A DNA stretch of 64,000 bases from Candidatus Omnitrophota bacterium. GTDB lineage: Bacteria > Omnitrophota > Gorgyraeia > JABMRJ01. The stretch lies in assembly GCA_016783555.1 (NCBI GenBank), contig JADHWH010000001.1, forward strand, positions 16,913-80,912, given 5' to 3'. Below, one piece after another: positions 4,576 to 33,924 of the stretch. A program made the position numbers and the translations under genes. The number at the start of each line of letters is the position of its first letter. Position 1 is the first letter of the stretch. Under the pieces are notes generated by a model, which worked only from the letters and a program-made list of their open reading frames with translations, had not been told where the DNA came from and ran no database searches.

Positions 4576-5304
4576 TCAGCATATCTTTCGGCGTTGGTCC
4601 TTTCTCATTAAAAATTCTGCAAATTTAAAATCGGTTTCGTCATCTATATCAATAGACCTTTCTTTAGGCATTACATATATAGCCGTCTTTTTGGATATAA
4701 TCGTATTTTCGCCGAATAGCGCCTCTCTTCTGGTTGCATATATAGCGCCGTTCGGCACATAGATATCCTCTAGATACCTCCTCAGCGTCCTCTTGCCTCT
4801 CAATGTACCGGAAAAACATAACTCGGCCCTTCTATCTTTCTTCAGTCTAAACATCCATTCTGGCGGCACCTCTGTCGCTTTTGCCGAAAAGGCTGATTGA
4901 ATGCCCTTATCCCTTATCAACATCTCTATGCATCTATCGATATCTTCAGAGTTTGCCAGCGGGGAAGTCGGCTGAAGCGTAACGGCTATATCTATCCTCC
5001 TCTTCTCTCTTGACTCGAGGAATCTCACTGCATGTTGAATAACCAGCGTGGAAGAACAACTGCCCGATATCTCCTTAGGGCGTTTAAAGGGGACCTCTGC
5101 GCCATATCTTAATGAGACCTTTTTTATCTCTGGATGGTCTGTTGAAATTATTATCCTTCTTAAGTACCTACTCATCTGTGCGGCTTTTATAACATAAGCT
5201 ATGAGAGGCCTTCCGTTCAAACCCTTAAGATTCTTTAAAGGTACTCTCTTAGAACCGCCTCTCGCGGATATTATGCCTATAATATTATAAGTATTTTTCA
5301 CCAT
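4576..5304 (-). CDS. Acylneuraminate cytidylyltransferase family (CMP-nonulosonic acid synthetase)
   Basis: IIGIISARGGSKRVPLKNL is the NeuA/LegF/PseF-type CTP_transf_3 motif. This is one of three such genes in the locus. Confidence 0.75.
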   Translation of the reverse strand: MVKNTYNIIGIISARGGSKRVPLKNLKGLNGRPLIAYVIKAAQMSRYLRRIIISTDHPEIKKVSLRYGAEVPFKRPKEISGSCSSTLVIQHAVRFLESREKRRIDIAVTLQPTSPLANSEDIDRCIEMLIRDKGIQSAFSAKATEVPPEWMFRLKKDRRAELCFSGTLRGKRTLRRYLEDIYVPNGAIYATRREALFGENTIISKKTAIYVMPKERSIDIDDETDFKFAEFLMRKDQRRKIC

Positions 5305-5310
5305 CTCTCC

Positions 5311-6789
5311 TTATCTTTTATGCAGGCTTTCTATTAAAGACGGATATAATATATCTGCCTCTCTCTCTTTAGAACCTATCTCTTTCTGATCAAAATCTAC
5401 CGACGAAGCTTTTATTGCGGCAAGAAACCTTAAGCCCTCTTGCGTACGTCTATTTTTGGCCTCCGCTCTACCATCCCCTGCACACAATCTGTGTAAAAGC
5501 GGGCGCAATTCTCTCCATGAACTGACCACATGCACATGGGGAAGAAAATTAAAGACATTATGGGCGCCGAATGAGATAACCGGTATGCCCGATATAGCGG
5601 CCTCTACGCCTAAGGTACTTGTGATTACCGCGACGCCGCGTGATGACTTTGCTATTCTCAGGGCATTCTCTAAGGGCGACACCATAACTACATTAGGTAT
5701 ATCCTGAATAGTCTTGTAAAAATCCCCCGGTCTTCTTCCAATGGCCAGGAGATGTTCTTTGACAGCGAGTAACGCGCCGGCAGGAAGGTTCTTGGCCATA
5801 AATTCTATGGCTGCCAGCTGCTCATTGAACTCGGGACTAAATGTACCTACGGCCATCTCCGGTTCCGTATGCAATGGATAGAAGATATACGGTTTGTCAG
5901 ATAGCTCATCTAAGCTTGCGGTCTTTAAGTTCTTCATAACCTTAGATCCTTTATGGGCCCTGTAGAGATACTTTATATTCTCAGATAACCGATAGCCGCC
6001 CATGCTGACGACCTTCTTATATCTCTTATACAGGTATGATCTTATCTGGAGTATTATTTCTTTCAACAATGTAACCTTGGAAGACTTCTTTAAAAACCTT
6101 TGGTAAACACCCTTGATATACGACTCCTCTATCGGACCATTGAGGTCCTCTTCGTCGACGAATTCATCTATATTTTTAATATCCGCGAAATTCTTCTTTA
6201 CCTCTGGGGAGGAATAGTATTCATCGACAACCCAATAATGGCGCGATCTGTATTTAGCGCCGTTAAATATGCGCACGGGGATGCTTCTATGCCTTGCAAC
6301 GGCCATAAATATCTTGCCTATTATTCCTACCTGCAAACCTATCACTAAGTCGGGTTTAGTCTTATCCAGATAATCCTCCCAAAATTTAAATATCTTGTTG
6401 AATATATTTACCGATTTTATATAGCTTGCCTTATCGCTTAAATGCGACCTTGGGTGGCCTGTTCCAGCGGCGGAAAAACCACGCCCTAAGTGCCTATCGG
6501 TCTGGAGGGCATCGACTGCATATACGTTATACCTATCCTCGTAATATCGAGCCTTATCATAAATATCTTGAGCCGCTTCCTGGCATCTGTCATACTCGTT
6601 GAAAAAATGGTTTATTGTCACATATGTATCTATCACACCTTCACGATCTAGGCCTCTCCAATATTCCACGCTCTGGGGGCTGCTGCATATAAAATGGATC
6701 TTAACATTCTCTCTCGCCTTAAGCTCTTTTAAAAATGGTATATGGAGCCAATAATATACCGCAAATCCCCATACAACTACGTTTTCCAC
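5311..6789 (-). CDS. Capsule-polysaccharide-biosynthesis family protein (KpsS/KpsC/LpsZ-like); putative CMP-sugar-dependent glycosyltransferase
   Basis: PYIFYPLHTEPE and GVAVITSTLGVEAAISGIPVISFG resemble Capsule_synth motifs. The start is revised to GTG 6787-6789, inside a junction element. Confidence 0.45.
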   Translation of the reverse strand: MENVVVWGFAVYYWLHIPFLKELKARENVKIHFICSSPQSVEYWRGLDREGVIDTYVTINHFFNEYDRCQEAAQDIYDKARYYEDRYNVYAVDALQTDRHLGRGFSAAGTGHPRSHLSDKASYIKSVNIFNKIFKFWEDYLDKTKPDLVIGLQVGIIGKIFMAVARHRSIPVRIFNGAKYRSRHYWVVDEYYSSPEVKKNFADIKNIDEFVDEEDLNGPIEESYIKGVYQRFLKKSSKVTLLKEIILQIRSYLYKRYKKVVSMGGYRLSENIKYLYRAHKGSKVMKNLKTASLDELSDKPYIFYPLHTEPEMAVGTFSPEFNEQLAAIEFMAKNLPAGALLAVKEHLLAIGRRPGDFYKTIQDIPNVVMVSPLENALRIAKSSRGVAVITSTLGVEAAISGIPVISFGAHNVFNFLPHVHVVSSWRELRPLLHRLCAGDGRAEAKNRRTQEGLRFLAAIKASSVDFDQKEIGSKEREADILYPSLIESLHKR

Positions 6790-6842
6790 CCCGTTAGACC
6801 TCCTCACCCCATTGACCTCTCATGAGGTCTAACGGGGTCCAT
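6787..6842 (-). repeat. Junction palindrome element, copy B
   Basis: The same arms, with a third arm CACCCCATTGACCTC in the loop. GAGGAGG-9nt-GTG gives the start of the KpsS-like gene. Confidence 0.85.
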
Positions 6843-6850
6843 TATCGCCT

Positions 6851-7807
6851 CTAATGCTTATGATTTGCCGTGCACGGTTCACACAGGGTCTTAGAAAAAT
6901 TAAGCCTCTTATGCCTCTCTCTTAATGCGTTTAGCTCCTTTGACTGCCAAAGTTCCTTTAATGACCTATCCCGTATATTCCCTATAACCAAAACGCCGTT
7001 ATAATCCTGACAACAGACAGTTACATCGCCGTTCCAGAAGACCGACAGGCGCAGCCATAATTGGGGGCATGGTCTCTTGGAAAGCTTCTTATAATCTACC
7101 ATCGATTCCTTAAGTATCTCGGGATTCCCGTCTACAGATGTGATATTAGTCACTGAGATAAAATCTACGGCGTCTTTGAACTTATCCACAAAGAGAGGGA
7201 TATCATTACAGTTACTCTTCATGCGAATGAATTGGAGCGTAAGCAGGGGTTTCTTGCCAATGGGTTTTATCTTGATAAAGTCTTCTATATTCTTTATGGT
7301 AGTCTCAAATTTCGCGCCTCTTCTTTTGTTCTCATAATCGTCTTTAACCATGCTCTCTACCGAAAATGTAATCCTATCGAGGCCGCACTCAACAAGCCTG
7401 CGGGCATTCTCCTCTGTCACAAGTGTTGCGTTTGTATTAAATTGGGTATGGATTCGATTTTTTTTGGCGTATCTTACCATATTAAAGATCTCTTTATGGA
7501 GTATCGATTCGCCCCATAGGTTCAATTTTACGGAGGTTATTCGATATTCGGCGCATTGGTCGATTATCCTACAAAAGAGGCCGTAGTCCATATATCCTAT
7601 TTTGCGGGTCATCATATTCCTCTCGCACATGGAGCACTTTAGGTTGCAGGCGTTGGTCACTTCTATGTCCACATGAAGGGGGGCCTCGGTTAGATAGAGA
7701 CTTCTGGCGCATGAGTCCCACATCTTGCGGAATTCCTTATACTCTCTATCCGCAATTTCAGTATTCGAGCTGACAACCTGAAAATAGTCGCTAATTTCTC
7801 TTTTCAT
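6851..7807 (-). CDS. Radical SAM protein with C-terminal SPASM-like Cys cluster
   Basis: CNLKCSMC is a CxxxCxxC cluster. There is a Cys-rich C-terminus (CPQLW...VCCQDYNG...CEPC). Confidence 0.75.
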   Translation of the reverse strand: MKREISDYFQVVSSNTEIADREYKEFRKMWDSCARSLYLTEAPLHVDIEVTNACNLKCSMCERNMMTRKIGYMDYGLFCRIIDQCAEYRITSVKLNLWGESILHKEIFNMVRYAKKNRIHTQFNTNATLVTEENARRLVECGLDRITFSVESMVKDDYENKRRGAKFETTIKNIEDFIKIKPIGKKPLLTLQFIRMKSNCNDIPLFVDKFKDAVDFISVTNITSVDGNPEILKESMVDYKKLSKRPCPQLWLRLSVFWNGDVTVCCQDYNGVLVIGNIRDRSLKELWQSKELNALRERHKRLNFSKTLCEPCTANHKH

Positions 7808-7808
7808 A

Positions 7809-8870
7809 TTATATTAATTTGTCTGTATACTTCTTATATTCTTCCCATTGGCCTATATCTACGTAGGACCTCTGGCTTACGGGATAGACCCCGACATTCT
7901 CCTTCTTCTCAAGGAGCACGTTTATAAAATCCGTCATATCAAAATGTTTCTCCTCGGGCATGTGGCTAATCGCGTCTTTTGATAAGACGTACGCTCCGGT
8001 ATTCACCGTAAAGTCGAATTCCGGTTTTTCATGAATTTGGCTTATCTTTCCCTCTTCTTTATAATGTATAATCCCGTAAGGCATCTTATGGTGCTGTATC
8101 GAGCCCACAACCGTCAATAGATTATTGTTCTTTTTGTGGAACTTCACAAGGTCGGCGTAATCGGCGTCCACTATGATATCGCAATTCGACACTATAAAAG
8201 TATCTTTGATGGTCTGCGGTAGAAGCTTGAGGCTTCCGGCCGTGCCTAAAAACTCCTCTTCCCAGGTGTATTCTATCGTGTAATCTTTTTCTATACTGTC
8301 GAAGTAGTTCTTTACCATCTCTCCTTTGTAATTCAGCGTGACATAGAAACGCTCTACCCCCTGGCGCCTGAATTTTTCTATTATTATCTCTATAATAGGT
8401 TTCTCGCCGATCGGTATAAGGGGCTTCGGCAGTATCTTTGTAAACGGATCGAGCCTATCGCCCTTGCCGCCCGCCATTATCACCACGGGCACGTCTGTCT
8501 TTGTGTAATATGAGTTTTCTTTGCCGAAGATGTCGCTGTAAAAAAAGACCTCAAGGATATTCTTCTTTTTATCGACAACAGGTATTATATCGATAGATTT
8601 CTCAAGCATAATCCTCTTTGCCTCTTCGGTATTGTTGTTGCCATCCAGGATAAAGATAGGCGTGCGGTTAAAGCATGTCGTGATCTTCTCCTTGAGATCG
8701 CCCGTCTTTAACACTCTTCTCCTGATATCACCGTCTGTAAGCGAACCCAATAATGAACCGTCGCCATTACAGATAAATAGTATCCTTCGCCCCGTTTCAT
8801 CAATTAATTTGAGCGCCTCTTTTATCGACAGGTCTTCTTTTACTTTAATCTTTGATATAATATCTTTCAT
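7809..8870 (-). CDS. CBS-pair domain + sugar-1-phosphate nucleotidyltransferase (PtmE-like, GDP-sugar route of legionaminic acid synthesis)
   Basis: The N-terminal ~120 aa are CBS-like. VVIMAGGKGDRLDPFTKILPKPLIPIG is the nucleotidyltransferase motif. The architecture matches C. jejuni PtmE (GlcN-1-P guanylyltransferase). Confidence 0.65.
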   Translation of the reverse strand: MKDIISKIKVKEDLSIKEALKLIDETGRRILFICNGDGSLLGSLTDGDIRRRVLKTGDLKEKITTCFNRTPIFILDGNNNTEEAKRIMLEKSIDIIPVVDKKKNILEVFFYSDIFGKENSYYTKTDVPVVIMAGGKGDRLDPFTKILPKPLIPIGEKPIIEIIIEKFRRQGVERFYVTLNYKGEMVKNYFDSIEKDYTIEYTWEEEFLGTAGSLKLLPQTIKDTFIVSNCDIIVDADYADLVKFHKKNNNLLTVVGSIQHHKMPYGIIHYKEEGKISQIHEKPEFDFTVNTGAYVLSKDAISHMPEEKHFDMTDFINVLLEKKENVGVYPVSQRSYVDIGQWEEYKKYTDKLI

Positions 8871-9430
8871 CTTCTCTTATATTCCTCCTTTAACATGGCC
8901 ATCCTTATGGAGCTGAAATATCTCCCTTCTCTATATATCTCATCTTTAAGTTCGCCCTCTCTTATGAATCCCATCTTCTCATAAAATCTTACGGCCTTTG
9001 TATTAGGCGCCGCCACCCCAAGCCAGACTTTATTTAGATTTAAGACACCAAAGGCGAACCTTAACATAAATTCCGTTGCCTCTTCCGCAAGGCCTTTACC
9101 CCAAAATGCCTTCTCGCCGATATGTATAGTATATTCGGCAGAGCGTATCTGCCAGCTTAAGTGGTGCAGGCCTATAATACCTATGGATTTTTCTGTCTCC
9201 CTATCTACGATCGCAAAGATGACATTATCTTTTTTGCTTAAATCCTCATACAGCCTCTCCATAGCCTCTCTTGTTGTCGGTCTTATACCGTGGCTCAGAT
9301 ACTTATTAAACTCCGGGTCGTTGGCCCATTTATGCATCCTCTCGGTGTAGTCTTCTCTCTCTATCGGGCGCAAGGTTATCTTATCTCCTCTGTAAAAATA
9401 GGGCGTTATATTCTTATCTCTGTCTGACAT
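8867..9430 (-). CDS. GNAT family N-acetyltransferase (RimL-like)
   Basis: GNAT fold motifs (IGIIGLHH...WGKGLAEEA...RFYEKMGF). It overlaps the upstream gene by 4 bp. Confidence 0.7.
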   Translation of the reverse strand: MSDRDKNITPYFYRGDKITLRPIEREDYTERMHKWANDPEFNKYLSHGIRPTTREAMERLYEDLSKKDNVIFAIVDRETEKSIGIIGLHHLSWQIRSAEYTIHIGEKAFWGKGLAEEATEFMLRFAFGVLNLNKVWLGVAAPNTKAVRFYEKMGFIREGELKDEIYREGRYFSSIRMAMLKEEYKRR

Positions 9431-9442: not shown

Positions 9443-10144
9443 TTATCTCTTGGATATAAGAGATTTGATCTTCTCCAGGTCCTCGATAGTATCGACATCC
9501 ATGGATATCTTTCTATTCATAACCAGCACCCCGCAATCTTTCGATATAATAGCCTTTTCGTTAAAGAGTGTCTCTCTCTTCGTAACATATATAGCGCCGT
9601 TAGGCTGGTATGTCTTTGGAAGCTGCTGGCTCTCCTTCCTGAAATAATCTGTCCCGTCATTAACAAGAGGGAAGGCCCGGTTCTTCTTTACGTGCACTAC
9701 CCAATAGGGGGGATATGCCGTCTCCATAACACTCATCAGGGAACCGCACCCCGATCTCTTTAGGATCTCTATCGCTTTATCTATATGGTCTTTCGTCCTT
9801 AACGGGGATGTGGGCTGCAAGGTCACAATAAGATCTATCCCGTAGCCTCTCTTTTCAATAAAATTTACCGCATGTTCTATTACCGGGGGGGTATGGGTAG
9901 AGTCTTGCGCAAGGTGTTTCGGCCTCATAAAAGGCACTTCAGCGCCGTGTTCTTCAGAGACTTTCGCGATCTCTTCGTTATCGGTAGTCACTATAACCCT
10001 GTCGGTATAGGCGCTCTTTAATGCCGCCTCTATCGTATATGCTATAAGCGGTCTCCCGCAGAGATCTATAATATTTTTACCCGGCAGGCCCTTCGATCCT
10101 CCCCTTGCGGGTATCACTGCAACAACCTTTAACTTCCCAATCAT
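9443..10144 (-). CDS. Acylneuraminate cytidylyltransferase (CMP-legionaminic/neuraminic acid synthetase-like)
   Basis: KVVAVIPARGGSKGLPGKNI is the family signature. The start is revised to ATG at 10142-10144, because the ORF track's N-terminal extension runs into a palindrome cluster. Confidence 0.75.
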   Translation of the reverse strand: MIGKLKVVAVIPARGGSKGLPGKNIIDLCGRPLIAYTIEAALKSAYTDRVIVTTDNEEIAKVSEEHGAEVPFMRPKHLAQDSTHTPPVIEHAVNFIEKRGYGIDLIVTLQPTSPLRTKDHIDKAIEILKRSGCGSLMSVMETAYPPYWVVHVKKNRAFPLVNDGTDYFRKESQQLPKTYQPNGAIYVTKRETLFNEKAIISKDCGVLVMNRKISMDVDTIEDLEKIKSLISKR

Positions 10145-10162
10145 CTTATCTTTGCTCCTCTC

Positions 10163-10298
10163 GTCATTGCGAGCGATTGCTTCGCCCGTCATTGCGAGCC
10201 AGCCGAAGGCTGGCGAAGCAATCTGGGACGGGCTCGCAACAGGCTGCGTTCGCGAAGCAATCTCTTAAGATTGCTTCGCCCCTTCGGGGCTCGCAATG
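10163..10298. repeat. Intergenic cluster of nested short palindromes, built from two alternating units
   Basis: The units are TCATTGCGAG(C) and GATTGCTTCGC, which recur in both orientations. The first unit is forward at 10163 and 10188 and reverse at 10288. The second unit is forward at 10174 and 10268 and reverse at 10212 and 10251. There are two local perfect hairpins: GCCAGCC-GAA-GGCTGGC at 10197-10213, and GCGAAGCAATC-TCTTAA-GATTGCTTCGC at 10251-10278. A CCCC-TTC-GGGG hairpin sits at 10278-10288. Confidence 0.7.
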
Positions 10299-10340
10299 AA
10301 ATTCGGCCGTATGATTTACGCTCCTTTACAGTCGCGTAAA

Positions 10341-11555
10341 TCATGGCCTTATTTCACCTATATTGTCAAATATTTTTTTAACTGCGCTTACGATATCCTT
10401 CATGTCTTCTATATTATATGGGTAGTGCATGGCCGTTATACATATCAACCTGCGGCAGACATCTTCAGCAACTCTGCATTTAATACCTCCAAAGCCGGCT
10501 TCTTTTAATTTCTCCTTGAATATGGGTGTCTTATATAGAGGTTGAGGGTATCCGCGTGAGAGCGTTATCCCTTCGGATTCCATAAGCTCTATAAATCTAT
10601 CCTTCGCGACGCCTATCTCTCTCTCATTATATAAAATGGGATATAGATGAGAAATCTCACCTTCTTTGTATCTCATAACCTCAAGCCCGCTGAATCTACC
10701 CAATTCTTTCTGGAGGTAAGAGACGTTCTTTCTTCTTATCTCGTTTAATGAGTCGAGCTTCTTTAACTGTTCTATGCCGAGCGCCGCGTGTATCTCGGTC
10801 ATCCTGAAGTTATACCCTAATATATTTGAGATATACTCTCTCGGCCTCCCCTTGGTCCAGACCTCACCGTGATTTCGTATAAGGCGGCACCTATCGGCAA
10901 TCTCATCCGAATTCGTCGTCACCATCCCGCCTTCGCCTATAACCATATTCTTTGTCTCGACAAAGCTGAATACCCCAGCGTCGCCTATCGAGCCGACCAT
11001 GCGGCCTTCGTGCTTACAACCGGGCGACTGGCACGCGTCTTCTATTACCTTAAGGCTATCTTCTTTTGCTATAGCCAAAATCTCGTCCATATTGCATACC
11101 TTGCCGTAGATATGGACCGGGACTATTGCCTTGGTCTTTTTGGTTATGGCCGCTTTAATCTTCTTAGGATCTATACAAAATGTATCCGGTTCAATATCCG
11201 CAAAGACGGTAGCCGCACCTACCATCAACACTGAAGAAGCAGTAGCGGTAAAGGTAAACGGCGGCACTATCACTTCGTCTCCGGGGCCGATATTGCAAGC
11301 GGCGAGGGCCGCGTGGAGCGCCGATGTGCCAGAATTGAATACTATCGCATATCGGGTTCCTATATATTTTGCAAAATCTTTTTCAAACTTCTGTACCATC
11401 TCACCGCCGAGGAAATCCTTATAAAATCCAGATAGACTCTTCTTTCTTAGAACCTTATTTACAGAAGCTATCTCTTCATCTCCGATTGGCGCGGAATAAT
11501 CAAACCTTTTCTCCCGGGTCTTTTTGCCGCCATGAATAAATAATCTCTCTTTCAC
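10341..11555 (-). CDS. DegT/DnrJ/EryC1/StrS family PLP-dependent sugar aminotransferase
   Basis: The sequence is DegT-family throughout (GTSALHAAL...FSF...NFRMTEIHAALG). The GTG start at 11553-11555 is supplied by a junction element. Confidence 0.8.
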   Translation of the reverse strand: MKERLFIHGGKKTREKRFDYSAPIGDEEIASVNKVLRKKSLSGFYKDFLGGEMVQKFEKDFAKYIGTRYAIVFNSGTSALHAALAACNIGPGDEVIVPPFTFTATASSVLMVGAATVFADIEPDTFCIDPKKIKAAITKKTKAIVPVHIYGKVCNMDEILAIAKEDSLKVIEDACQSPGCKHEGRMVGSIGDAGVFSFVETKNMVIGEGGMVTTNSDEIADRCRLIRNHGEVWTKGRPREYISNILGYNFRMTEIHAALGIEQLKKLDSLNEIRRKNVSYLQKELGRFSGLEVMRYKEGEISHLYPILYNEREIGVAKDRFIELMESEGITLSRGYPQPLYKTPIFKEKLKEAGFGGIKCRVAEDVCRRLICITAMHYPYNIEDMKDIVSAVKKIFDNIGEIRP

Positions 11556-11616
11556 CCCGTTAGACCTCCCTATCTATTTTCCCCATCAGCCTCTTATGAG
11601 GTCTAACGGGGTTCAT
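11553..11616 (-). repeat. Junction palindrome element, copy C
   Basis: It carries the upstream oxidoreductase TGA stop and the downstream aminotransferase GTG start, with GGGAGG as the SD. Confidence 0.85.
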
Positions 11617-25947: not shown

Positions 25948-26985
25948 TTAACGCTTTAGAAAATCCAAGGTTAACGGAGTTCCTCTGGATATACGCCTTT
26001 TGGCCTTTTTACCTAGGACATGCTTCAAAAATTTAGGCGGCAATCCCTGTCCAGGCCTTATGGACCTTACATTTTGTTCCGTAAAGACCTCCCCCTTCTT
26101 TACGTCTTTCGTTACAAACAAAGAACGCCTGAATATTCTGTTTTTACTTTCGGCTTTCGTTATACAGTAACCTACCTTCCCAATAGCTTTCTCTGCTATT
26201 CTTATGTTTTCTACAAGTGATTTCAATTCGTGAGGTTCTATAGAAAAGAAGCTGTCCGGGGTTTCGAATTTCCTCGAGAGGGTAAAATGCTTCTCGACCA
26301 TATCCGCCCCTAAAGAGGCAGCGAGTATTGATGCACCAATTCCCAGCGTATGATCAGAGAGGCCTACGGAACAGCTAAATTTTTTCTTCATGTGCGGTAT
26401 TGTTCTTAAATTCATCTCTTCCGGGCTTGCGGGATAGCTGCTTACGCATTTTAATAACGTTATATCCTTCGCCCCCGCTCTTCTTGCGGCAGTTACGGCC
26501 TCTTCTACCTCCTTGAGGGTAGCCATCCCGGTAGACATTATAAGCGGCTTACCGGTCTTTGCCGTATACTCTATTAAATCGAGATCCACCAATTCAAAAG
26601 ACGCGATCTTATGCATAGGGACATCCAGCTCTTCCAGGAAGTCGACTGCCGTCCTGTCGAACGCCGTAGAAAAAAAGACCATATCTAAATCGTCCGCTAC
26701 ACCTTTCAGCCTTTTAAACCAGCTCCATGGCGTATATGCCCTTTTGTATAATTGATAGAGCGTCTGGCCTCCCCATTTCGGGTGCTTGATCTTAAAGCAT
26801 CTTCTATTGTTGTCTATGGTAATAGTATCGGCCGTGTATGTCTGAAACTTAACCGCATCGGCGCCTGAGGCCTTAGCCTTCTTTATAAGAGTTACTGCTC
26901 TCTTCAAGCTGCGACCGTGATTAGCGGATATCTCCGCTACTATAAAGACCTCTCTCTTCCGGTCTTTTGAGTTTGAATCAAACAT
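25948..26985 (-). CDS. pseI: Pseudaminic acid synthase-like (NeuB family + SAF domain)
   Basis: FIVAEISANHG...SDHT motif, in a pseB-pseC-pseF-pseG-pseH-pseI context. Confidence 0.75.
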   Translation of the reverse strand: MFDSNSKDRKREVFIVAEISANHGRSLKRAVTLIKKAKASGADAVKFQTYTADTITIDNNRRCFKIKHPKWGGQTLYQLYKRAYTPWSWFKRLKGVADDLDMVFFSTAFDRTAVDFLEELDVPMHKIASFELVDLDLIEYTAKTGKPLIMSTGMATLKEVEEAVTAARRAGAKDITLLKCVSSYPASPEEMNLRTIPHMKKKFSCSVGLSDHTLGIGASILAASLGADMVEKHFTLSRKFETPDSFFSIEPHELKSLVENIRIAEKAIGKVGYCITKAESKNRIFRRSLFVTKDVKKGEVFTEQNVRSIRPGQGLPPKFLKHVLGKKAKRRISRGTPLTLDFLKR

Positions 26986-27442
26986 AATCCGCTTCCTTTT
27001 TATAGACTATCTTTTCACGGGTCTCCCCCGCATGTCTATAGCCCGCCTTCAAAAACGCCTTCTGCGACGCGATGTTATCTTTCTTCACCTCAGCTATTAC
27101 AGACAGCCTCTTTTTTGTCTCGGTAAATATCTTCTCTGTGCCGAGCCTTATGAGCTCCCTGCCCAGTTTTTTGCCGAAGAAGTCCGGATTCAGGCTGACG
27201 CTCACCCTGATGAGGAATTCTTCAACATCGAATCTTATAACGCCTACCTTCTCTTTTCTGTCGCGGGCTATGTATATCCTTGCGCTGCGGTCTCTAAATC
27301 TAGAATAAAACCACTTCTTATGATCTTTCCAGGAGATTGGGGCATCATCGAATGAATTTTTCCGAACCTCAGGATGGTTCCTCCATGTCCAGAGGTCTCT
27401 ACAATCACCTTCAGCCGCTTTTTTAAATATAAGTTTGGCCAT
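26978..27442 (-). CDS. pseH: Small GNAT N-acetyltransferase, PseH-like
   Basis: 154-aa GNAT protein located between pseG and pseI. Confidence 0.6.
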   Translation of the reverse strand: MAKLIFKKAAEGDCRDLWTWRNHPEVRKNSFDDAPISWKDHKKWFYSRFRDRSARIYIARDRKEKVGVIRFDVEEFLIRVSVSLNPDFFGKKLGRELIRLGTEKIFTETKKRLSVIAEVKKDNIASQKAFLKAGYRHAGETREKIVYKKEADYV

Positions 27443-27446: not shown

Positions 27447-28463
27447 TTAGTTCCGTAATCTTAAGCCGCCCGGATGTCCCGTATTCAAAAGTGCCTCCAC
27501 TACCCTCAGGCTTCCCTTCCCATCAACAAATTTTCTTCCTACCGAGCTCATCTTCAGCCTGACATCTTTTTTCTGTAACCGCTCTATCGCCTTAAGCAGA
27601 TTCTCCTCGAGGCCCTTCTCTTCCCACCATCCGGCATACTCTATAAATCCTGCCTCCAACCATCCCCTGACATTATCTAATTGATTCTCTGCTACCGCTA
27701 TAGCTATGGCGGGTAGACCTATCCGCGCGGCCTCGTATAGAGTCTGCCCGCCGGCCGATATCGCTATATCCGATTCGAGCAATACCTTCTTCATCTGATT
27801 CGCTTCGGGATGATAGATCAATCGGGTATTCTCATCCTTGGCCTCATTAATCTCATCCAGGCTCTTAAAACCTTTCCCCACTATGACCCTCTTAGTCAAC
27901 TCCGGGTAATTCTTCGTTAAGAGGCTCAAGACCTTAGGGGTGATATTACGTGAATCATCGCCGCCGAAAGTTATAACGGCGCTTTTGACAATCTCCCTTA
28001 TTTCCTTATCCGGCGCCTCCCAAAAATCCCTCCTCAAGGGTGTATATCTTGAGCCGAGCAGGTGTGTGATGCCCTCTTCCTTAAAAAAATTTTTTTTATC
28101 GGCATTTACGGTCCCGTTTAAGACTACTCCCTTTGGATAATCTATGCGCTTGTTATCGTCAATATACACAGCCATCTTTGCCCGTTCCTGAATCCTCTTA
28201 TACAATGCTAATCCCGCAAGATATGAGTCTACGACGGCTATATCTGTCTCCTCTAATAAATCATCCAGTCTTTCACTATCTTTAAGCCAATCGAAGATTT
28301 CGACGTCTCTACCTTTCAATAAATCCTTAACGGCCTCATCCCCGTTTATTATAAACCTCGCGGATATCTTATTCGCCTCAAACGCCTGACAGAGAGAGAG
28401 GCACCTTGTGATGTGCCCGAATCCGATATCCCTGCCGCCCTCGGTTAAGATACATACCTTCAT
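27447..28463 (-). CDS. pseG: UDP-2,4-diacetamido-2,4,6-trideoxy-beta-L-altropyranose hydrolase
   Basis: DIGFGHITRCLSL is the PseG-type GxGHxxR motif, in a GT-B-like fold. Confidence 0.75.
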   Translation of the reverse strand: MKVCILTEGGRDIGFGHITRCLSLCQAFEANKISARFIINGDEAVKDLLKGRDVEIFDWLKDSERLDDLLEETDIAVVDSYLAGLALYKRIQERAKMAVYIDDNKRIDYPKGVVLNGTVNADKKNFFKEEGITHLLGSRYTPLRRDFWEAPDKEIREIVKSAVITFGGDDSRNITPKVLSLLTKNYPELTKRVIVGKGFKSLDEINEAKDENTRLIYHPEANQMKKVLLESDIAISAGGQTLYEAARIGLPAIAIAVAENQLDNVRGWLEAGFIEYAGWWEEKGLEENLLKAIERLQKKDVRLKMSSVGRKFVDGKGSLRVVEALLNTGHPGGLRLRN

Positions 28464-28466
28464 CGC

Positions 28467-29777
28467 CTAAGCAATCCTCTTAAAGCCGGAATGGCAGACA
28501 GGGCCTCTTAAGAGTCTCTCTTCTTTCTTATCCTTTATGGCCCTGGATAAGAAGAAGAAGGCCTTGTCCAACGCATCCATATATTTATCTATGGTCTTTT
28601 GTTTATGCGCATATGCAGCGTAAAATACCGTCGTTGCCAAAAATCCTTTTTCAAGCATGGCTTGTGTAAAGAGCGTCTTTAAGACCGCGCTCTTTTTATG
28701 ATTGAAGGTAAAGTGGCTTAACGGATATATTCCCGATACGGAGATATTTAGATTATGCCTCTTGGCAAGTTCTTTCCATCCGTCCTGAACCGCCTTTCCC
28801 GTCTTCGCGAGATGCGCCGGGACATTGTGTTCTCTTAACTTCTTTATGGTGGCCAGCGCCGCAACCGGACCTACCCTCTCAGTCCAGTAGGTACTGCTTA
28901 TGAACGTATCCTGCGCGATCTCCATGATATCCTTCCTTCCGATAATCGCCGCCATCGGGTATCCGTTACTCATGCCCTTGGCGAATACAGAGATATCCGG
29001 ATATACCTTAAATTTCAGGTGCGCCCCTCCGACATTGAACCGCCAGCCTGAGGTAATCTCGTCAAAGATAAGGACTATTCCTTCCTTCTTTGTAACTTCT
29101 CTTATGGTCTCAAGGAACCCCTTCGCCGGGTAGTAATTCCTGATCGGCTCCATGATAACCGCGGCGATATCCTTCTTGAACCTCTTTATGAGGCTTAAGA
29201 ATCTATCTCTATCGTTATATTCAAAAGGTATAGCCGTCTTTCTTAACCCCCTGGGCACGCCCCTGGGCTCCAACCCCGGCAAGAGATGCCCTTTTAATAC
29301 CCTTCTGTCTTTTAGGTTTGCGGCGAGATACCAATCGTGCCAGCCGTGATAGCCGCAAAATAAAATTTTATCCTTTTTCGTCTTCGCCCTCGCTATCCTT
29401 ACCGCTACCGCCACCGCCTCGCCGCCGGTCCGCGCAAAACGGACCATCCGGGCCCAGGGATGAATCCTGCAAAGCTCTTTTGCCAGCTCCACCTCTTCCG
29501 GGCAGTTCAAAGTAGACATGGTCCCTTTATCGATTGCGCTTTTTACCGCGTTATCCACATCTCTGTCGGCATAGCCCAATATACAAGAACCGACACCCAT
29601 ATGGCTGGTATCGATATACTTTCTCTTGTCTAAGTCCCACACAAGACAGCCCTTGGCCCCGCTGTAATAAGCCGGCCACAGACCCGGCAGGAACATCTCG
29701 GGCCTCTTGGAGAGAAGCTGTGTCCCGCCCGGTATGATCCTCTTTGCCTCTTTGTAAAGGTCCTGCGATATACCCAT
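28467..29777 (-). CDS. Class III (HemL/GSA-like) PLP aminotransferase
   Basis: Aminotran_3-like sequence (VIMEPI...DEITSGWRF...KG). Confidence 0.65.
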   Translation of the reverse strand: MGISQDLYKEAKRIIPGGTQLLSKRPEMFLPGLWPAYYSGAKGCLVWDLDKRKYIDTSHMGVGSCILGYADRDVDNAVKSAIDKGTMSTLNCPEEVELAKELCRIHPWARMVRFARTGGEAVAVAVRIARAKTKKDKILFCGYHGWHDWYLAANLKDRRVLKGHLLPGLEPRGVPRGLRKTAIPFEYNDRDRFLSLIKRFKKDIAAVIMEPIRNYYPAKGFLETIREVTKKEGIVLIFDEITSGWRFNVGGAHLKFKVYPDISVFAKGMSNGYPMAAIIGRKDIMEIAQDTFISSTYWTERVGPVAALATIKKLREHNVPAHLAKTGKAVQDGWKELAKRHNLNISVSGIYPLSHFTFNHKKSAVLKTLFTQAMLEKGFLATTVFYAAYAHKQKTIDKYMDALDKAFFFLSRAIKDKKEERLLRGPVCHSGFKRIA

Positions 29778-29778: not shown

Positions 29779-31455
29779 TTATGACTCTTCCCCTCTTTTT
29801 ATATCGACGATTTTGTCTTCCTTTAGTGATTTTAAATAGCCTTCGTTTACCAAATACCCTTTGTTAATCTCTTCCACATCAGGGTTTAACTCAAGAAACC
29901 TGATTATATCTTCCATATGAAAATCCGGCTTCTTAGGGTATAAGGCCTCCAATACAGCCTTCATAAACTCAAAGTCCTCATGTCTATCTAAAGACCATCT
30001 CTTCTCACTCAAGTTCTTATCCTGCTTAAAGTGAAATACCTCAAAGTCATCTTTATTATTCATCACGTATGGAGTGACGTGCTCCCTCTCGGACTGAAGG
30101 CGGGCATTCTCCCATGCCCTTTTTAATGTATTGAAGCTAAAGACCTCTACATCCTGGCCGTCCGGATAGGTCCTCTCCCAGACATTGGAACAGTAATCCG
30201 CCCCCGAATTGAAGTATCTGTTCACTACCGCGTCTATGATCCAGGGATCGATCAAGGGGCTGTCAGCGGTTATCCGCACGATATGGCGTATATCATATGC
30301 CTTTGCCGCTTGATAGAATCTGTCCAATACGTCTTCTTCTGAACCGCGAAATACCTTGACTCCTTTTTTTTCCATTAAACTGACTATCTCTTTATCTTCA
30401 TCCTTAGTTGTGGTGGCGACTATCACATCGTCTATAGATTCTGATCTCTTGACGCGCTCGAGGACGTGCTCTAATATGGTCTTATCGAGTATCTTAAGGA
30501 GCACCTTGCCAGGCAGTCTCGTCGCGCCCATCCTGGCCTGTATAATAACGCCTGCCTTAAGCCTCTTCTTCCAATTTACAGGACATACTATCTCCTCATC
30601 ATCAAGCCTGAACGAGTCTGATTCCAGTTCACCGTATATCTTTCTCACATCATCCAAATAATCTAATGAATCTATATTATCTTTAAGCTGTTTTAGGGAA
30701 TCGACTCCTATAACCACCTTGTCAATTGAATCATTGAGCATGGCAAAACAGAGACAGAGCGCATTCTGCGGGATATTGTATTCTTTCGAAATCCTATCAA
30801 CTTTATCTAAATAACCCATTGCCTCGTTAAGATCCCTTCCTATTCTATTTTTTCTTTCAAAGAAGAGGCCCTGTAAGAAGACAGAGCGCGCATGTATCTC
30901 TATGCCTCTCTCTTTTAAATATAAAAAGTGGTCCTTAAATCTCTGGTCAAGGATATTATAGGGTACTTGAATGATATCAATCCCGATTTCACTGTCGATT
31001 AAATATTTTAACTCTTCCATTAAGGAGAGAGAGGCCCCTATCTTCTTTGTCATGCCGGCCTCTTTTAATGACTCCATCCCGCTCCATAAGCTGATTCCGG
31101 GCAAGCGTATATCCTCAAAATTGTGGACCAGGTATCCATAAATACTACTCTGCCCGAGCCTCTTAAGTGTCTCGGAAGAGCTATCTCGTACCTTCCCGAC
31201 ATCTCTATAAAAGTGCGGGGTCTTAGAGACAATTTTAAAACTCTTGTCTGTCTCTCTTATAAATTCACCTATCAATCTTTCGCTGTCGCCGTAGAGGCAG
31301 GCTGTATCCAGCATATCTATGCCTGCGTTAGCGGCATATTCCAGGATTTTGAATACCTCATCTTTAGGGATTTTGCCTCTCTTATTGGCTATCCCGTAAT
31401 CCAGGCCGAACTGGGCCGTCCCAAGACATAATCTTTTTATGAAGTTCTTCTTCAT
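29779..31455 (-). CDS. pseF: Fusion: aldo/keto reductase + PseF/SpsF-type cytidylyltransferase (CMP-pseudaminic acid synthetase)
   Basis: The N-terminus LGTAQFGLDYG is AKR-like. The C-terminus GVIIQARMGATRLPGKVLL is the SpsF/PseF signature. Confidence 0.75.
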   Translation of the reverse strand: MKKNFIKRLCLGTAQFGLDYGIANKRGKIPKDEVFKILEYAANAGIDMLDTACLYGDSERLIGEFIRETDKSFKIVSKTPHFYRDVGKVRDSSSETLKRLGQSSIYGYLVHNFEDIRLPGISLWSGMESLKEAGMTKKIGASLSLMEELKYLIDSEIGIDIIQVPYNILDQRFKDHFLYLKERGIEIHARSVFLQGLFFERKNRIGRDLNEAMGYLDKVDRISKEYNIPQNALCLCFAMLNDSIDKVVIGVDSLKQLKDNIDSLDYLDDVRKIYGELESDSFRLDDEEIVCPVNWKKRLKAGVIIQARMGATRLPGKVLLKILDKTILEHVLERVKRSESIDDVIVATTTKDEDKEIVSLMEKKGVKVFRGSEEDVLDRFYQAAKAYDIRHIVRITADSPLIDPWIIDAVVNRYFNSGADYCSNVWERTYPDGQDVEVFSFNTLKRAWENARLQSEREHVTPYVMNNKDDFEVFHFKQDKNLSEKRWSLDRHEDFEFMKAVLEALYPKKPDFHMEDIIRFLELNPDVEEINKGYLVNEGYLKSLKEDKIVDIKRGEES

Positions 31456-31458
31456 ATT

Positions 31459-32601
31459 CTAAAAAAACTCCTCGATTCCCTTTATGACTTTCAACTGATC
31501 AGGCTTAGATAATCCTGCATACAAGGGGAGGCTCAGACACTCTTTAAAATATCTCTCCGCGACAGGGAAATCATTCCATCTATATCCAAACGTCTTTTTA
31601 TAATATGAAAGCAGGTGTACGGGTATATAGTTTACCTGGGTAGATATCCCTTTTTCTTTAAGGTAATTATAAAGCCTGTCGCGTCTCTTCCGGGGCACGC
31701 GTATAACGTAGAGGTGGTAGGAGGCGCGGGTATCATCTCTCTCTGAGGGCAGCCTTATAGCTTCTATCTTGGACAAACGATTATTATACGTAGAAACAAG
31801 ACGCCTTCTCTCTCTTACCATTTTATTCAATTTCTTTAGCTGAGATATCCCTAACGCGCTTTGAAAATCCGTAATGCGGTAATTGAAACCTATCTGCGGT
31901 ATATCATATGACCAAAACCCTTTTTCTTTCTTTACTATGCCGTGGTGCCTGAGCTTCAGCGCAGATTTATAGATATTCCTGTCATTGGTCAGTATCGCCC
32001 CGCCCTCGCCTGTCGTTATGTGCTTTATCGGATGAAAGCTAAAGATAGTTATGTCCGAGTGCCTTGAGCTCCCGACCTTTGCCCATCTCTCTCTAATCCT
32101 ATACTCGGCGCCGAGCGCATGGGCGGCGTCCTCCACAACCTTTATCCCGTAGCCCGCGCATACCTTTTTTATCTCTACGATATCGGCTACGGTCCCCATA
32201 AAATGAACAGGGACAACCGCCTTTACCTTTCTTCTCTGCGAGGGAACTTTTAAGAAATCTTTTAACCTTTCTGTATCCATGTGATAAGTCTTATCGTCTA
32301 TATCCACAAACGAAGGCCTCGCGTTTACGTAAAGGGCGCAGTTCGCGCTCGCGGAAAAAGTAATAGGCGACGTTATAACTCTGTCGCCTTCTGTTACATT
32401 AAGCGCCAACATCGATAGGTGAAGCGCCGACGTCCCGCTCGATACGGCCACTGCGTATCTCGCCCCGGTATATTCGGCCAGGGCCTCTTCGAACTCCCTT
32501 ATCTTCGGGCCTTGAGTAAGCCAGTCGGATCTCAGCGCCCTGACTACTCCTCTTACATCATCATCTGTAATATACTGATGGCTATACGGTACGGTCTTCA
32601 T
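31459..32601 (-). CDS. pseC: UDP-4-amino-4,6-dideoxy-N-acetyl-beta-L-altrosamine transaminase
   Basis: DegT family with ITFSASANC and SFHPIKHITTGEGG, the PseC-type motifs. Confidence 0.8.
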   Translation of the reverse strand: MKTVPYSHQYITDDDVRGVVRALRSDWLTQGPKIREFEEALAEYTGARYAVAVSSGTSALHLSMLALNVTEGDRVITSPITFSASANCALYVNARPSFVDIDDKTYHMDTERLKDFLKVPSQRRKVKAVVPVHFMGTVADIVEIKKVCAGYGIKVVEDAAHALGAEYRIRERWAKVGSSRHSDITIFSFHPIKHITTGEGGAILTNDRNIYKSALKLRHHGIVKKEKGFWSYDIPQIGFNYRITDFQSALGISQLKKLNKMVRERRRLVSTYNNRLSKIEAIRLPSERDDTRASYHLYVIRVPRKRRDRLYNYLKEKGISTQVNYIPVHLLSYYKKTFGYRWNDFPVAERYFKECLSLPLYAGLSKPDQLKVIKGIEEFF

Positions 32602-32612
32602 CGCCCCTCAAT

Positions 32613-33596
32613 CTATAAATTTTCTACCATCTTCTGCAGCGTCTCCTGCGTCAACCATTTGTCATTCTTATCGCTCTTATAGATAAACCCTTCAGGCACG
32701 GGTTTACATCCTTCATATTTTTTATGGATCTCATGCCTTTCGAAAAATTGAGGCAGTATCACATATATCCCGTTAAATAACTTCGTCTTTCTCGCTTCAT
32801 CCTCGGAGATGAGGCTCTCGTGCAGCTTCTCGCCCGGCCTTATGCCGATAATCTTAAATTTGCATTCCGGTTCAATGGCCCGGGCCAGGTCCGTCAATTT
32901 CATGGACGGTATATGCGGGACAAATATCTCGCCGCCCTCCGCTTCCCGCAGGGCCTTTATGACAAGCTCTACGCTCTCATCCAATGTCATCCAGAAACGC
33001 GTCATCCTCTCATCTGTAAGCGGGAACTCTTTTATTCTCTTTTCTTTCAGATTGAGGAAGTGCTCTATCACGCTGCCCCTGGATGCGACCACATTGCCGT
33101 AACGGACAACCGAGAATTTAACCCTATTCCCCCCATACGCATTTGCGTCTATGAAGATCTTCTCCGCCACAAGCTTTGTAGCGCCGTATAGATTTATGGG
33201 GCTTACCGCCTTGTCGCTTGAGAGCGCTATTACCTTTTCGACTCCTCTATCAAGGGCCGCCTCTACTATGTTATTAGCGCCTAAAATATTAGTCTTAACG
33301 GCTTCTATTGGGTTATATTCAAGGGCGGGGACCTGTTTTAGGGCGGCTGCGTGTATTACATAATCGACGTTCTGAAATGCCCTCATGAGCCTCGCCTTAT
33401 CCCTTATATCGCCTATAAAGAACCTTATGTTGAAATCCATCTTAGACGATTCCACCTTCATCTGGTGCTGTTTAAATTCATCCCGGCTGAAGATTATAAG
33501 CTTATCGGGCTTATAATTCTTTAGGGCTATCTCGGTGAACTTCTTCCCGAAGGAGCCTGTCCCCCCTGTTATCAGAATGGTCTTTTTGTTCAACAT
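32613..33596 (-). CDS. pseB: UDP-N-acetylglucosamine 4,6-dehydratase (inverting)
   Basis: KTILITGGTGSFGKKF plus YGATK is the PseB/FlaA1 signature. The first 86 bp overlap the 3' end of the MarR gene. Confidence 0.85.
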   Translation of the reverse strand: MLNKKTILITGGTGSFGKKFTEIALKNYKPDKLIIFSRDEFKQHQMKVESSKMDFNIRFFIGDIRDKARLMRAFQNVDYVIHAAALKQVPALEYNPIEAVKTNILGANNIVEAALDRGVEKVIALSSDKAVSPINLYGATKLVAEKIFIDANAYGGNRVKFSVVRYGNVVASRGSVIEHFLNLKEKRIKEFPLTDERMTRFWMTLDESVELVIKALREAEGGEIFVPHIPSMKLTDLARAIEPECKFKIIGIRPGEKLHESLISEDEARKTKLFNGIYVILPQFFERHEIHKKYEGCKPVPEGFIYKSDKNDKWLTQETLQKMVENL

Positions 33597-33924
33597 TATT
33601 CGCCTCCTGAATCTTTTCGTATTCCCTCTTTAGTGCTTCAAATTGTCTCTCTTTTACCTTTAAGAAATGGTATGTGAGATTCATCTTCTCACTAAGCCCT
33701 TTTTGGGTTAAGAGATACTTTACCTTTTTGGCCTTTCCCGGGTTTTTGGAAAAACTGGCTATCTTTATGATGCCCTTCTTGGCGAGTTCTTTTAGGAGGT
33801 AATTGGTCTTTCCAAGAGAGATATCAAGCTTCTTGGAGAGTACGCGCTGGTTTAAGGAAGGGTTATCTCCTACTTCCCTTATTATATTAAGCGTATCTTC
33901 TTTTAGTAAGTCATGTTCATCCAT
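33511..33924 (-). CDS. EPS-associated MarR-family winged-helix transcriptional regulator
   Basis: LNQRVLSKKLDISLGKTNYLLKELAKKGII is a wHTH motif. It is the first gene of the minus-strand glycan operon. Confidence 0.65.
   Translation of the reverse strand: MDEHDLLKEDTLNIIREVGDNPSLNQRVLSKKLDISLGKTNYLLKELAKKGIIKIASFSKNPGKAKKVKYLLTQKGLSEKMNLTYHFLKVKERQFEALKREYEKIQEANNVEQKDHSDNRGDRLLREEVHRDSPKEL

Follow-up and report, generated by a model that had tools for sequence, protein, structure and literature searches.

A likely surface-glycan super-locus in a Candidatus Omnitrophota bacterium that joins pseudaminic acid, GDP-type legionaminic acid and phosphoramidate genes on one strand

In a 64,000-nucleotide stretch of contig JADHWH010000001.1 from a Candidatus Omnitrophota bacterium (the window in what follows; it is also contained in the 152-kb metagenome contig ENA ERZ24794666 NODE_173), genes for two nonulosonic acids (NulO) stand in a single densely packed array, next to relatives of the Campylobacter jejuni genes Cj1418 to Cj1415. 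Overall, our data make it likely that this array is the core of a surface-glycan super-locus of at least 50 kb, which lies on one strand and combines pseudaminic acid (Pse) synthesis, GDP-type legionaminic acid (Leg) synthesis and a phosphoramidate module. An earlier sequence-only reading had placed Pse genes, GDP-dependent Leg genes and three CMP-synthetases in one co-directional array at positions 4576-33924, and this is borne out by scores with curated hidden Markov models (HMMs) and by the PtmE/LegX architecture of one of the proteins. Its size, put at about 30 kb, was underestimated, since same-strand genes run from at least position 39932 through window position 1 and then for at least 10 kb further. 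Within the original block, both ends of which coincide exactly with ends of open reading frames (ORFs), 26 ORFs follow one another on the minus strand, and 21 of their 25 junctions are overlaps or gaps of at most 20 bp, just as had been described; the remaining four measure 31, 43, 57 and 148 bp. Gene order and family membership are direct observations, and what the enzymes act on, the finished glycan, its acceptor and co-transcription are inferred. Two S-adenosylmethionine (SAM)-dependent methyltransferases, a radical SAM/SPASM enzyme, two GT-B-like paralogs and the adjoining phosphoramidate module had gone unnoticed before.

Forty-six proteins were run through the curated HMMs of NCBIfam and assigned by the curated cut-offs, with domains taken from Pfam (table 1); E-values of 1e-127 to 1e-149 exclude chance. 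In the Pse block (33924 to 25948), PseB, PseC, PseG and PseI all pass their cut-offs, PseG by a narrow margin, and PseI reaches 318 on the NeuB model, which is below the cut-off of that model. The four motifs quoted earlier are all exact, i.e. KTILITGGTGSFGK at residue 5 of PseB, SFHPIKHITTGEGG at residue 188 of PseC, GFGHITRC at residue 14 of PseG and IIQARMGATRLPGKVL at residue 304 of a protein in which an aldo-keto reductase (AKR) is fused to a cytidylyltransferase. The supposed completeness of the Pse set holds by HMM for these four enzymes, but not for the PseH-like GNAT, which stays below its cut-off, nor for the AKR fusion, which has no match to the PseF model TIGR03584. In the latter, Pfam places Aldo_ket_red at residues 8-265 (118 bits) and CTP_transf_3 at residues 303-500 (129 bits); its top match in the PDB is 6oew, a 'Cytidylyltransferase' (175 bits), and in the related contig L091 the AKR and CTP_transf_3 parts are separate neighbouring genes in the equivalent place.

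Judged by conserved position rather than by HMM score, the GNAT would act as PseH and the AKR-fused cytidylyltransferase is probably the CMP-Pse synthetase. The GNAT lies between PseG and PseI in L091 and L093 as well. Moreover, the order MarR-PseB-PseC-AKR-CTP_transf_3-AT3-PseG...PseH-PseI-GNAT-U552 recurs in L091 at 36-71% identity and for the most part also in L093, with a MarR/HTH_24 gene in the equivalent position in both, and the segment MarR-PseB-PseC-AKR-cytidylyltransferase-aminotransferase-PseG is reproduced in these two contigs at 49-72% identity. Because the AKR, the cytidylyltransferase and the class III aminotransferase recur in L091 and L093—the aminotransferase keeping its place at 69-70% identity—these three form a conserved component of Pse blocks of this kind. 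The present block would lead from UDP-GlcNAc to pseudaminic acid via PseB, PseC, the PseH-like GNAT, PseG and PseI, with CMP activation probably carried out by the AKR-fused enzyme.

The Leg block (17708 to 7809) would start from GDP-GlcNAc and yield legionaminic acid or a close derivative. PtmE provides a GDP-linked precursor, and the PtmE/LegX-type protein encoded here, with its predicted GTP specificity, would supply the GDP-sugar, from which LegB, LegC, a LegH(NeuD)–LegI(NeuB) fusion and LegG(NeuC) would assemble the nonulosonate before a NeuA-type synthetase adds CMP. Tandem CBS stretches joined to a nucleotidyltransferase domain constitute the PtmE/LegX architecture, which has been proposed as a marker of the Leg pathway (bioRxiv 10.1101/2022.03.25.485807). 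LegB, the true start of which is probably an ATG near 17645, and LegC both narrowly pass their models, which are of the hypothetical-equivalog type. The fusion and the NeuC-type 2-epimerase, both of which had been recognized earlier, exceed curated cut-offs, the fusion with each of its halves: it scores 200.7 against 160.8 on TIGR03570 (NeuD/PglB/VioB family) over residues 15-216, and 486.4 against 399.65 on TIGR03569 over residues 224-550. The top PDB match of its synthase domain is SpsE of Bacillus subtilis (189 bits), which is needed for Leg synthesis in that organism (PMC7439481). Two synthases are thus accompanied by three genes of the CMP-synthetase family CTP_transf_3 (29779-31455, 9443-10192 and 4576-5304). 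The latter two encode NeuA-type paralogs, CTP3_b (the candidate LegF) and CTP3_c, which are 46% identical to each other and have CMP-Neu5Ac synthetase 6ifd (138 bits) and NeuA 9ftb (114 bits), respectively, as top PDB matches.

Only 6 bp downstream of the CTP3_c gene begins the phosphoramidate module (4569 to 55). In C. jejuni, Cj1418, Cj1417, Cj1416 and Cj1415 jointly use glutamine, ATP and CTP to build CDP-phosphoramidate 3'-phosphate (PMC11800397), and a relative of each is encoded here. The Cj1418-like enzyme has PPDK_N and PEP-utilizers domains in Pfam and an intact swivel-histidine motif (GGANSHMAI); the model that it matches over its full length, NF004508, is itself unnamed, and homologs 47-56% identical to it are called 'glutamine kinase' by the Joint Genome Institute. 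The catalytic motifs GVCRG and WHPE are present in the Cj1417-like glutamine amidotransferase (GATase), and the P-loop and the LAAGRGSRL motif of the module are intact as well. In the PDB, the module proteins matched PEP synthases, GMP synthases and enzymes of the LicC type, all of them generic, and no Cj14xx structure. By these family relationships, the module would yield 3'-phospho-CDP-phosphoramidate, with glutamine, ATP and CTP as starting materials. Beyond the window, on the same contig (L006 10528-20531), same-strand glycan genes go on, first with a 415-residue membrane protein, some homologs of which have an SGNH/GDSL domain, and a 263-residue SAM methyltransferase, then with a CDP-alcohol phosphatidyltransferase-family protein, a KpsS-like paralog and a FemAB-like protein; a GNAT, a PIG-L deacetylase, two FkbM methyltransferases and a second Asn synthase are found there as well. 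With a methyltransferase just past the window edge, the glycan would probably be phosphoramidate-decorated, and the SGNH-like 415-residue protein and the CDP-alcohol phosphatidyltransferase-family protein are speculative candidates for the phosphoramidate transferase.

Does the module act on a NulO glycan, or is it just a neighbour? In a scan with a kinase alignment across one genome per species, at least 581 genomes contained a relative, and the best 80 loci were taken with 10-kb flanks. The kinase is accompanied by the GATase in 70, by the nucleotidyltransferase in 68 and by the APS-kinase-like gene in 61 of these 80 loci. In 18 of the 80 (a count without a random-locus baseline), a gene for a NeuB-family synthase, for NeuC or for a CMP-nonulosonate synthetase is located within 10 kb; the distance is at most 5 kb in 13 cases, the strand is the same in 16, and in 15 the NulO gene is upstream of the kinase, usually directly. 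These 18 loci span at least seven higher taxa, including two other Omnitrophota, two Planctomycetota, Peregrinibacteria, Nomurabacteria and a metagenome-assembled genome of Salinivirgaceae, and also Methyloversatilis universalis, Denitromonas ohlonensis, Polynucleobacter, Desulfovibrio and Magnetospirillum sulfuroxidans. A recurring layout leads from NulO genes via PtmE and a CMP-synthetase to the kinase module, the 415-residue protein and a methyltransferase, the last of these at 63-67% identity across phyla.

According to two reviews, the kinase is specific to C. jejuni and Campylobacter is the only known source of phosphoramidate sugars (PMC9561416, PMC6429109), and one preprint reports a similar cluster in Borg elements; our literature search found no paper that connects the phosphoramidate module with nonulosonic acids and none that connects Omnitrophota with them. 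Our data therefore suggest a link between phosphoramidate and NulO glycans that is recurrent and so far undescribed. A bolder proposal is that the module is functionally coupled to NulO glycan synthesis, here and recurrently across Planctomycetota, candidate phyla radiation groups, Beta- and Alphaproteobacteria, Bacteroidota and Desulfovibrio, such that these organisms make phosphoramidate-decorated surface glycans which contain Pse or Leg and are possibly O-methylated. We put this forward tentatively, as it seems rather unlikely on present evidence. It is quite possible, if somewhat short of probable, that the Cj1415-1418-like genes adjoin the array by position only and belong to the synthesis of another glycan or metabolite, without any functional link to nonulosonic acids: no NulO core gene lies within 10 kb in 62 of the 80 module genomes, and the C. 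jejuni module works on capsular hexoses and heptoses (PMC11800397). Mere adjacency accounts less well for the 6-bp gap between CTP3_c and the kinase gene, and for proximity on mostly the same strand in so many higher taxa. Should the coupling be real, a modification regarded as Campylobacter-specific would extend to a new class of sugars and to many lineages, and the GT-B-like U552 family described below and the SGNH-like 415-residue family would be the missing transferases.

Several results weigh against so integrated a locus. TIGR03569 spans both NeuB and LegI without separating them, PseH and all three cytidylyltransferases are under their equivalog cut-offs, and the GATase, with 103 bits on NF045546, is well under the cut-off of 250. 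Neither a flippase, polymerase or exporter nor an oligosaccharyltransferase, Maf protein or flagellin turned up in the approximately 75 kb examined. With respect to transcription, a promoter scan of the region gave the same site counts as shuffled sequence, and a terminator scan stayed at chance level, with no intergenic terminator-like site standing out.

The exact product of the second block is a separate matter. It could be a stereoisomer of Leg (of the epi-Leg type) or a further-modified 5,7-diamino nonulosonate (with an extra amino, methyl or deoxy group), to which the third CMP-synthetase would be dedicated, and we regard this as possible although on the doubtful side. The Leg block does contain four enzymes that have no part in the canonical pathway, namely a Gfo/Idh/MocA oxidoreductase, a third DegT-family aminotransferase (37% identical to LegC and 33% to PseC), a radical SAM/SPASM enzyme and a GNAT, and the two NeuA-type paralogs stand against only two synthases. 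Yet none of the proteins was identified as an epimerase or as a modifying enzyme with known specificity, and the extra enzymes may just as well serve other sugars of the glycan.

It is very unlikely, by contrast, that the second set makes N-acetylneuraminic acid (Neu5Ac) via NeuC, NeuB and NeuA, with the dehydratase and the aminotransferase belonging to an unrelated hexosamine pathway of the bacillosamine/Wbp/WecB type. Two points are in its favour: the models named NeuB and NeuC (TIGR03569 and TIGR03568) are blind to the difference between Leg and Neu enzymes, and CMP-Neu5Ac synthetases are the top PDB matches of both NeuA-type proteins. We know of no role in Neu5Ac synthesis, however, for an N-acetyltransferase fused to the synthase. 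Moreover, LegB and LegC pass equivalog-type cut-offs of their own and are encoded directly upstream of and overlapping the NeuD–NeuB gene, a PtmE/LegX-type protein is part of the block, and the synthase domain is matched best by the Leg synthase SpsE (PMC7439481). The sequence-only reading had staked its Leg assignment against generic NeuAc synthesis and WecB/Wbp-type pathways, and neither is what the HMMs returned; they gave LegB and LegC above cut-off and a NeuC of the hydrolysing type.

With legionaminic acid or one of its close derivatives taken as the second sugar, the middle of the array (26 to 17.6 kb) and its tail would contribute tailoring enzymes and candidate CMP-sugar transferases. 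Tailoring would be carried out by the methyltransferases, the GNATs, the AsnB-type amidotransferase, the Gfo/Idh/MocA oxidoreductase together with the third DegT aminotransferase, and the radical SAM enzyme. The two GT-B-like paralogs, U552 and U521, and the KpsS-like protein would pass CMP-sugars to the acceptor, and for U552 and U521 a role as nonulosonic-acid transferases is a reasonable guess. A word-indexed search found six relatives of U552, none with a Pfam domain on record, and a family profile of these relatives and U521 detects 1627 or more cluster representatives, of which 460 have E <= 1e-30. Foldseek gives weak GT-B matches (UDP-GlcNAc 2-epimerases, BshA, TarL) to the AlphaFold (AF2) model of U552, which has a pLDDT of 78.6 and a pTM of 0.80. 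A member of the family directly follows a GNAT gene in five other contigs (L091-L095); its place is after PseI in L091 and L092 and after the Pse block in L093, and in L093, L094 and L095 it precedes LegB. Since the dual Pse–U552–Leg layout recurs in related contigs, it is a lineage feature rather than an accident of assembly. In L090, a family member without an adjoining GNAT lies in a NeuB/CTP_transf_3/Aminotran_3 neighbourhood. A metagenome scan for U552 relatives with a four-sequence alignment produced only four loci, too few for statistics.

The family match of the KpsS-like protein, claimed before, stands (Capsule_synth, 34 bits against 20), and a paralog with 50% identity is encoded downstream (L006 13368-14894); likeness to KpsC 6mgd in the PDB is weak (E = 0.06). 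It is a candidate transferase for a CMP-activated keto-acid sugar. Profile–profile comparison of the U552 family with the KpsS-like pair gave a probability of 2.3%, such that common ancestry was not detected.

Two functional proposals were rejected. Acetamidino formation had been attributed to the AsnB-like enzyme, which belongs to the wrong family for this: it is of the Asn-synthase type (TIGR01536), a glutamine-hydrolysing family the chemistry of which is carboxylate amidation, and no N-acetyl-sugar amidotransferase model appears in the NCBIfam listings of the 46 proteins. A Maf-type flagellin glycosylation island was also discarded, with neither Maf nor flagellin present and with two unknown proteins without Pfam match; a flagellin probe found nothing in the window or in the flanks on the same contig. 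The short-chain dehydrogenase/reductase (SDR) previously listed inside 4576-33924 is not there; the only classical one lies upstream of marR.

Between 17600 and 26000, GC content falls to 0.33-0.40, compared with 0.44-0.49 on both sides, and gene content in this stretch is not kept in related loci with the GNAT–U552 pair as the exception. The stretch has the look of a type-specific, variable core, and variable cores of low GC are a usual feature of glycan loci. The drop in GC could also betray a metagenomic mis-assembly of loci from different organisms, but the chance of this is next to negligible, as the gene order was independently assembled in other samples (L002-L005, L007-L008), related contigs show the Pse–U552–Leg order, and copies of a hairpin repeat flank the low-GC segment on either side and recur past the window.

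This hairpin occupies three of the four junctions longer than 20 bp in the 4576-33924 block. Its 14-nucleotide left arm, CCCCGTTAGACCTC, follows the stop codon of the upstream gene; after a loop of about 20-90 nucleotides, the 14-nucleotide right arm, GAGGTCTAACGGGG, overlaps the Shine-Dalgarno sequence, which is GGAGG in three window copies and AGAGG in the fourth, and reaches into the GTG with which the next gene begins. From this geometry, start codons were moved to 13876 (NeuC), 11555 (third DegT aminotransferase), 6789 (KpsS-like) and 2097 (GATase), with GTG as the start of the NeuC, KpsS-like and GATase genes. Further copies are found downstream on the same contig (L006, about 14900-15017) and in L091 (11626-11745), i.e. 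in a distinct organism and also within a nonulosonic-acid locus. Rfam has nothing over the gathering threshold in the window and only noise-level matches on the hairpin. The element may be a device for translational coupling or a palindrome resembling repetitive extragenic palindromic (REP) sequences or miniature inverted-repeat transposable elements; the latter is considered because a gene like those of REP-associated tyrosine transposases lies at 51455-52150 (64 bits, below the cut-off of 80). A separate set of short repeats, GCGAAGCAATC and TTGCGAGCC, is located in the one long gap of the array (148 bp, 10193-10340), along with a TTGACA-18-CATGAT site that has its end at 10340 and, immediately ahead of the cytidylyltransferase gene, a GCCAGCC-TTCG-GCTGGC stem-loop.

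The array had been thought to depend on a single strong promoter in front of marR. Such a sigma-70-like site exists (table 1), but comparably scoring sites precede both same-strand units upstream (35585-35558, with 11 of 12 consensus positions, and 39981-39953, with 10 of 12), in a region where site counts are at shuffle level and glycan genes extend up to 39932, such that the case for a single promoter is not made. At this upstream edge, two genes for B12-binding radical SAM proteins diverge (38481-39932, minus strand; 39975-41696, plus strand), the best matches of which, all below cut-off, include models of PhpK-type P-methyltransferases. Further upstream follow a HigB/HigA-type toxin–antitoxin pair (Gp49-like/HTH; 45671-46387) and, 13 kb away, a gene (46660-51414) for a 1584-residue protein with NosD/beta-helix repeats and DUF11 domains, possibly a surface protein and a conceivable target of glycosylation.

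Table 1. Genes and sequence elements of the array, listed in the direction of the minus strand, with hairpin copies at the end. Model scores are given against curated cut-offs.
Feature	Coordinates	Strand	Evidence and remarks
Upstream same-strand extension, five genes	34083-39932	-	PurF-like amidotransferase, FkbM methyltransferase, membrane transglutaminase-like protein, classical SDR, B12-binding radical SAM protein
Classical SDR	37668-38462	-	Upstream of marR
Sigma-70-like site TTGACA-17-TAAAAT	33933-33961	-	Upstream of marR; 11/12 positions match
MarR-family exopolysaccharide (EPS)-associated regulator	33511-33924	-	TIGR04176 MarR_EPS 97.6 vs 88; first gene of 4576-33924
PseB, inverting UDP-GlcNAc 4,6-dehydratase	32613-33596	-	TIGR03589 475.2 vs 407.75
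PseC aminotransferase	31459-32601	-	TIGR03588 468.1 vs 423.5
AKR fused to CTP_transf_3 cytidylyltransferase	29779-31455	-	Pfam
Class III (GSA-aminomutase-like) aminotransferase, candidate tailoring enzyme	28467-29777	-	Best NCBIfam 262 bits vs 486
PseG, UDP-sugar hydrolase	27447-28463	-	TIGR03590 158.7 vs 153.55
PseH-like GNAT N-acetyltransferase	26978-27442	-	TIGR03585 48.7, below 93.1
PseI, pseudaminic acid synthase	25948-26985	-	TIGR03586 477.5 vs 340.25
U552, GT-B-like, unnamed family	24285-25943	-	552 residues; no Pfam or NCBIfam match
U521, U552 paralog	22723-24288	-	521 residues; 25.5% identity to U552; sole Pfam signal sub-threshold GT61; GC 0.33
SAM-dependent methyltransferase, 363 residues	21618-22709	-	Pfam Methyltransf_11, 40 bits
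GNAT_a acetyltransferase	21005-21616	-	Homolog directly before U552 homolog in L091-L095
AsnB-type glutamine-hydrolysing amidotransferase	19160-21001	-	TIGR01536 428.1 vs 267.1
512-residue protein, N-terminal SAM methyltransferase domain	17629-19167	-	Pfam Methyltransf_11, 86 bits, residues 60-157; no domain assigned in the C-terminal part
LegB, NAD-dependent 4,6-dehydratase	16647-17708	-	TIGR04180 494.8 vs 475; PseB model 70.7
LegC aminotransferase	15557-16654	-	TIGR04181 423.8 vs 420
NeuD/LegH-type acetyltransferase fused to NeuB/LegI-type synthase	13926-15584	-	TIGR03570 + TIGR03569
NeuC/LegG-type hydrolysing 2-epimerase	12671-13876	-	TIGR03568 436.1 vs 235.9; wecB model 91
Gfo/Idh/MocA oxidoreductase, putative tailoring enzyme	11613-12674	-	Best: inositol 2-dehydrogenase and UDP-GlcNAc 3-dehydrogenase models, all below cut-off
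Third DegT-family aminotransferase	10341-11555	-	PseC model 271, LegC model 233, both below cut-off
CTP3_b, NeuA-type CMP-nonulosonate synthetase, candidate LegF	9443-10192	-	CTP_transf_3; TIGR03584 192 vs 205.7
GNAT_b acetyltransferase	8867-9430	-	4-bp overlap with PtmE-like gene; 33% identical to GNAT_a
PtmE/LegX-type protein (GlcN-1-P guanylyltransferase type)	7809-8870	-	Pfam: two CBS stretches, NTP_transferase 130-350
Radical SAM/SPASM enzyme, putative tailoring enzyme	6851-7807	-	Pfam Radical_SAM 66 bits, SPASM 52.5 bits
KpsS/KpsC-like (Capsule_synth) protein, 492 residues	5311-6789	-	PF05159 34.1 vs 20
CTP3_c, second NeuA-type CMP-nonulosonate synthetase	4576-5304	-	CTP_transf_3; TIGR03584 154 vs 205.7
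Cj1418-like PEP-synthase-family enzyme (L-glutamine kinase type), 801 residues	2164-4569	-	NF004508 898.6 vs 501, full length
Cj1417-like class I GATase (gamma-glutamyl-CDP-amidate hydrolase type)	1438-2097	-	NF045546 103 bits, E = 1.6e-29
Cj1416-like nucleotidyltransferase	597-1376	-	NTP_transferase family; LAAGRGSRL motif
Cj1415-like APS-kinase-family protein (CDP-amidate 3'-kinase type)	55-585	-	PF01583 107 bits; NF004041 169.9 vs 127
Hairpin copy 1	2097-2160	-	-32.9 kcal/mol, z = -4.8
Hairpin copy 2	6789-6850	-	-31.0 kcal/mol, z = -4.8
Hairpin copy 3	11555-11612	-	-28.3 kcal/mol, z = -5.2
Hairpin copy 4	13876-13925	-	-31.6 kcal/mol, z = -5.8

Nonulosonic acids and O-methyl phosphoramidate are surface decorations that shape recognition by phages, immune systems and predators. 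Omnitrophota is a phylum of uncultured cells only, and genes for Pse and Leg in one array suggest an unusually elaborate cell surface. Cultured carriers of a NulO-linked module, i.e. Methyloversatilis universalis, Denitromonas ohlonensis and Magnetospirillum sulfuroxidans, make the confinement of phosphoramidate glycans to Campylobacter a testable notion. The U552 family, with its at least 1600 cluster representatives, is nominated as a family of candidate NulO transferases, an enzyme class that is poorly known (PMC5420450).

Among known systems, the flagellin O-glycosylation locus of Campylobacter jejuni and C. coli (Cj1293-Cj1342) also has UDP-dependent Pse and GDP-dependent Leg synthesis in one region, the latter with PtmE, LegB, LegC, LegH, LegG, LegI and LegF, as well as tailoring enzymes and an own CMP-synthetase for each sugar (PMC5378307, bioRxiv 10.1101/2022.03.25.485807). 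In contrast to this locus, the Omnitrophota array has neither maf nor flagellin genes, occupies a single strand with minimal spacing, contains a LegH–LegI fusion, an AKR–cytidylyltransferase fusion and a third CMP-synthetase, and has GT-B-like and KpsS-like proteins as candidate transferases. The module for O-methyl phosphoramidate synthesis of C. jejuni (Cj1418c-Cj1415c) shares its four families, their transcriptional order, intact motifs and a SAM methyltransferase next to it with the Omnitrophota module (PMC11800397). Here, however, the module belongs to a NulO locus rather than a Kps capsule locus, its GATase is under the Campylobacter equivalog cut-off, and it is followed by the SGNH-like membrane protein and the CDP-alcohol phosphatidyltransferase-family protein.

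The S-layer O-glycan loci of Tannerella forsythia likewise represent an anaerobe with non-flagellar NulO on surface proteins; their Leg variant is GDP-dependent with a PtmE homolog, and a dedicated transferase gene lies just downstream (PMC5378307, PMC5420450). Each Tannerella strain has one of the two pathways, whereas the Omnitrophota locus has both. For the Tannerella transferases, a TagB-like character with DXD and HP motifs has been described (PMC5420450). To the beta-Kdo (3-deoxy-D-manno-octulosonic acid) transferases KpsS and KpsC, finally, the 492-residue protein and its downstream paralog are related by matching PF05159 and by adjoining a gene for a CMP-keto-acid-sugar synthetase. This match is weak, both in bits and against the KpsC structure, and kdsB, KpsMTED and Kdo genes are not nearby; a CMP-nonulosonate would be the more plausible donor for the KpsS-like protein. 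A dual capacity for Pse and Leg is already known from Campylobacter. The novelty lies in its occurrence in Omnitrophota, in a compact array that keeps to one strand and includes gene fusions, in the presence of a third synthetase and of a candidate transferase family, and most of all in phosphoramidate modules that recurrently adjoin NulO genes.

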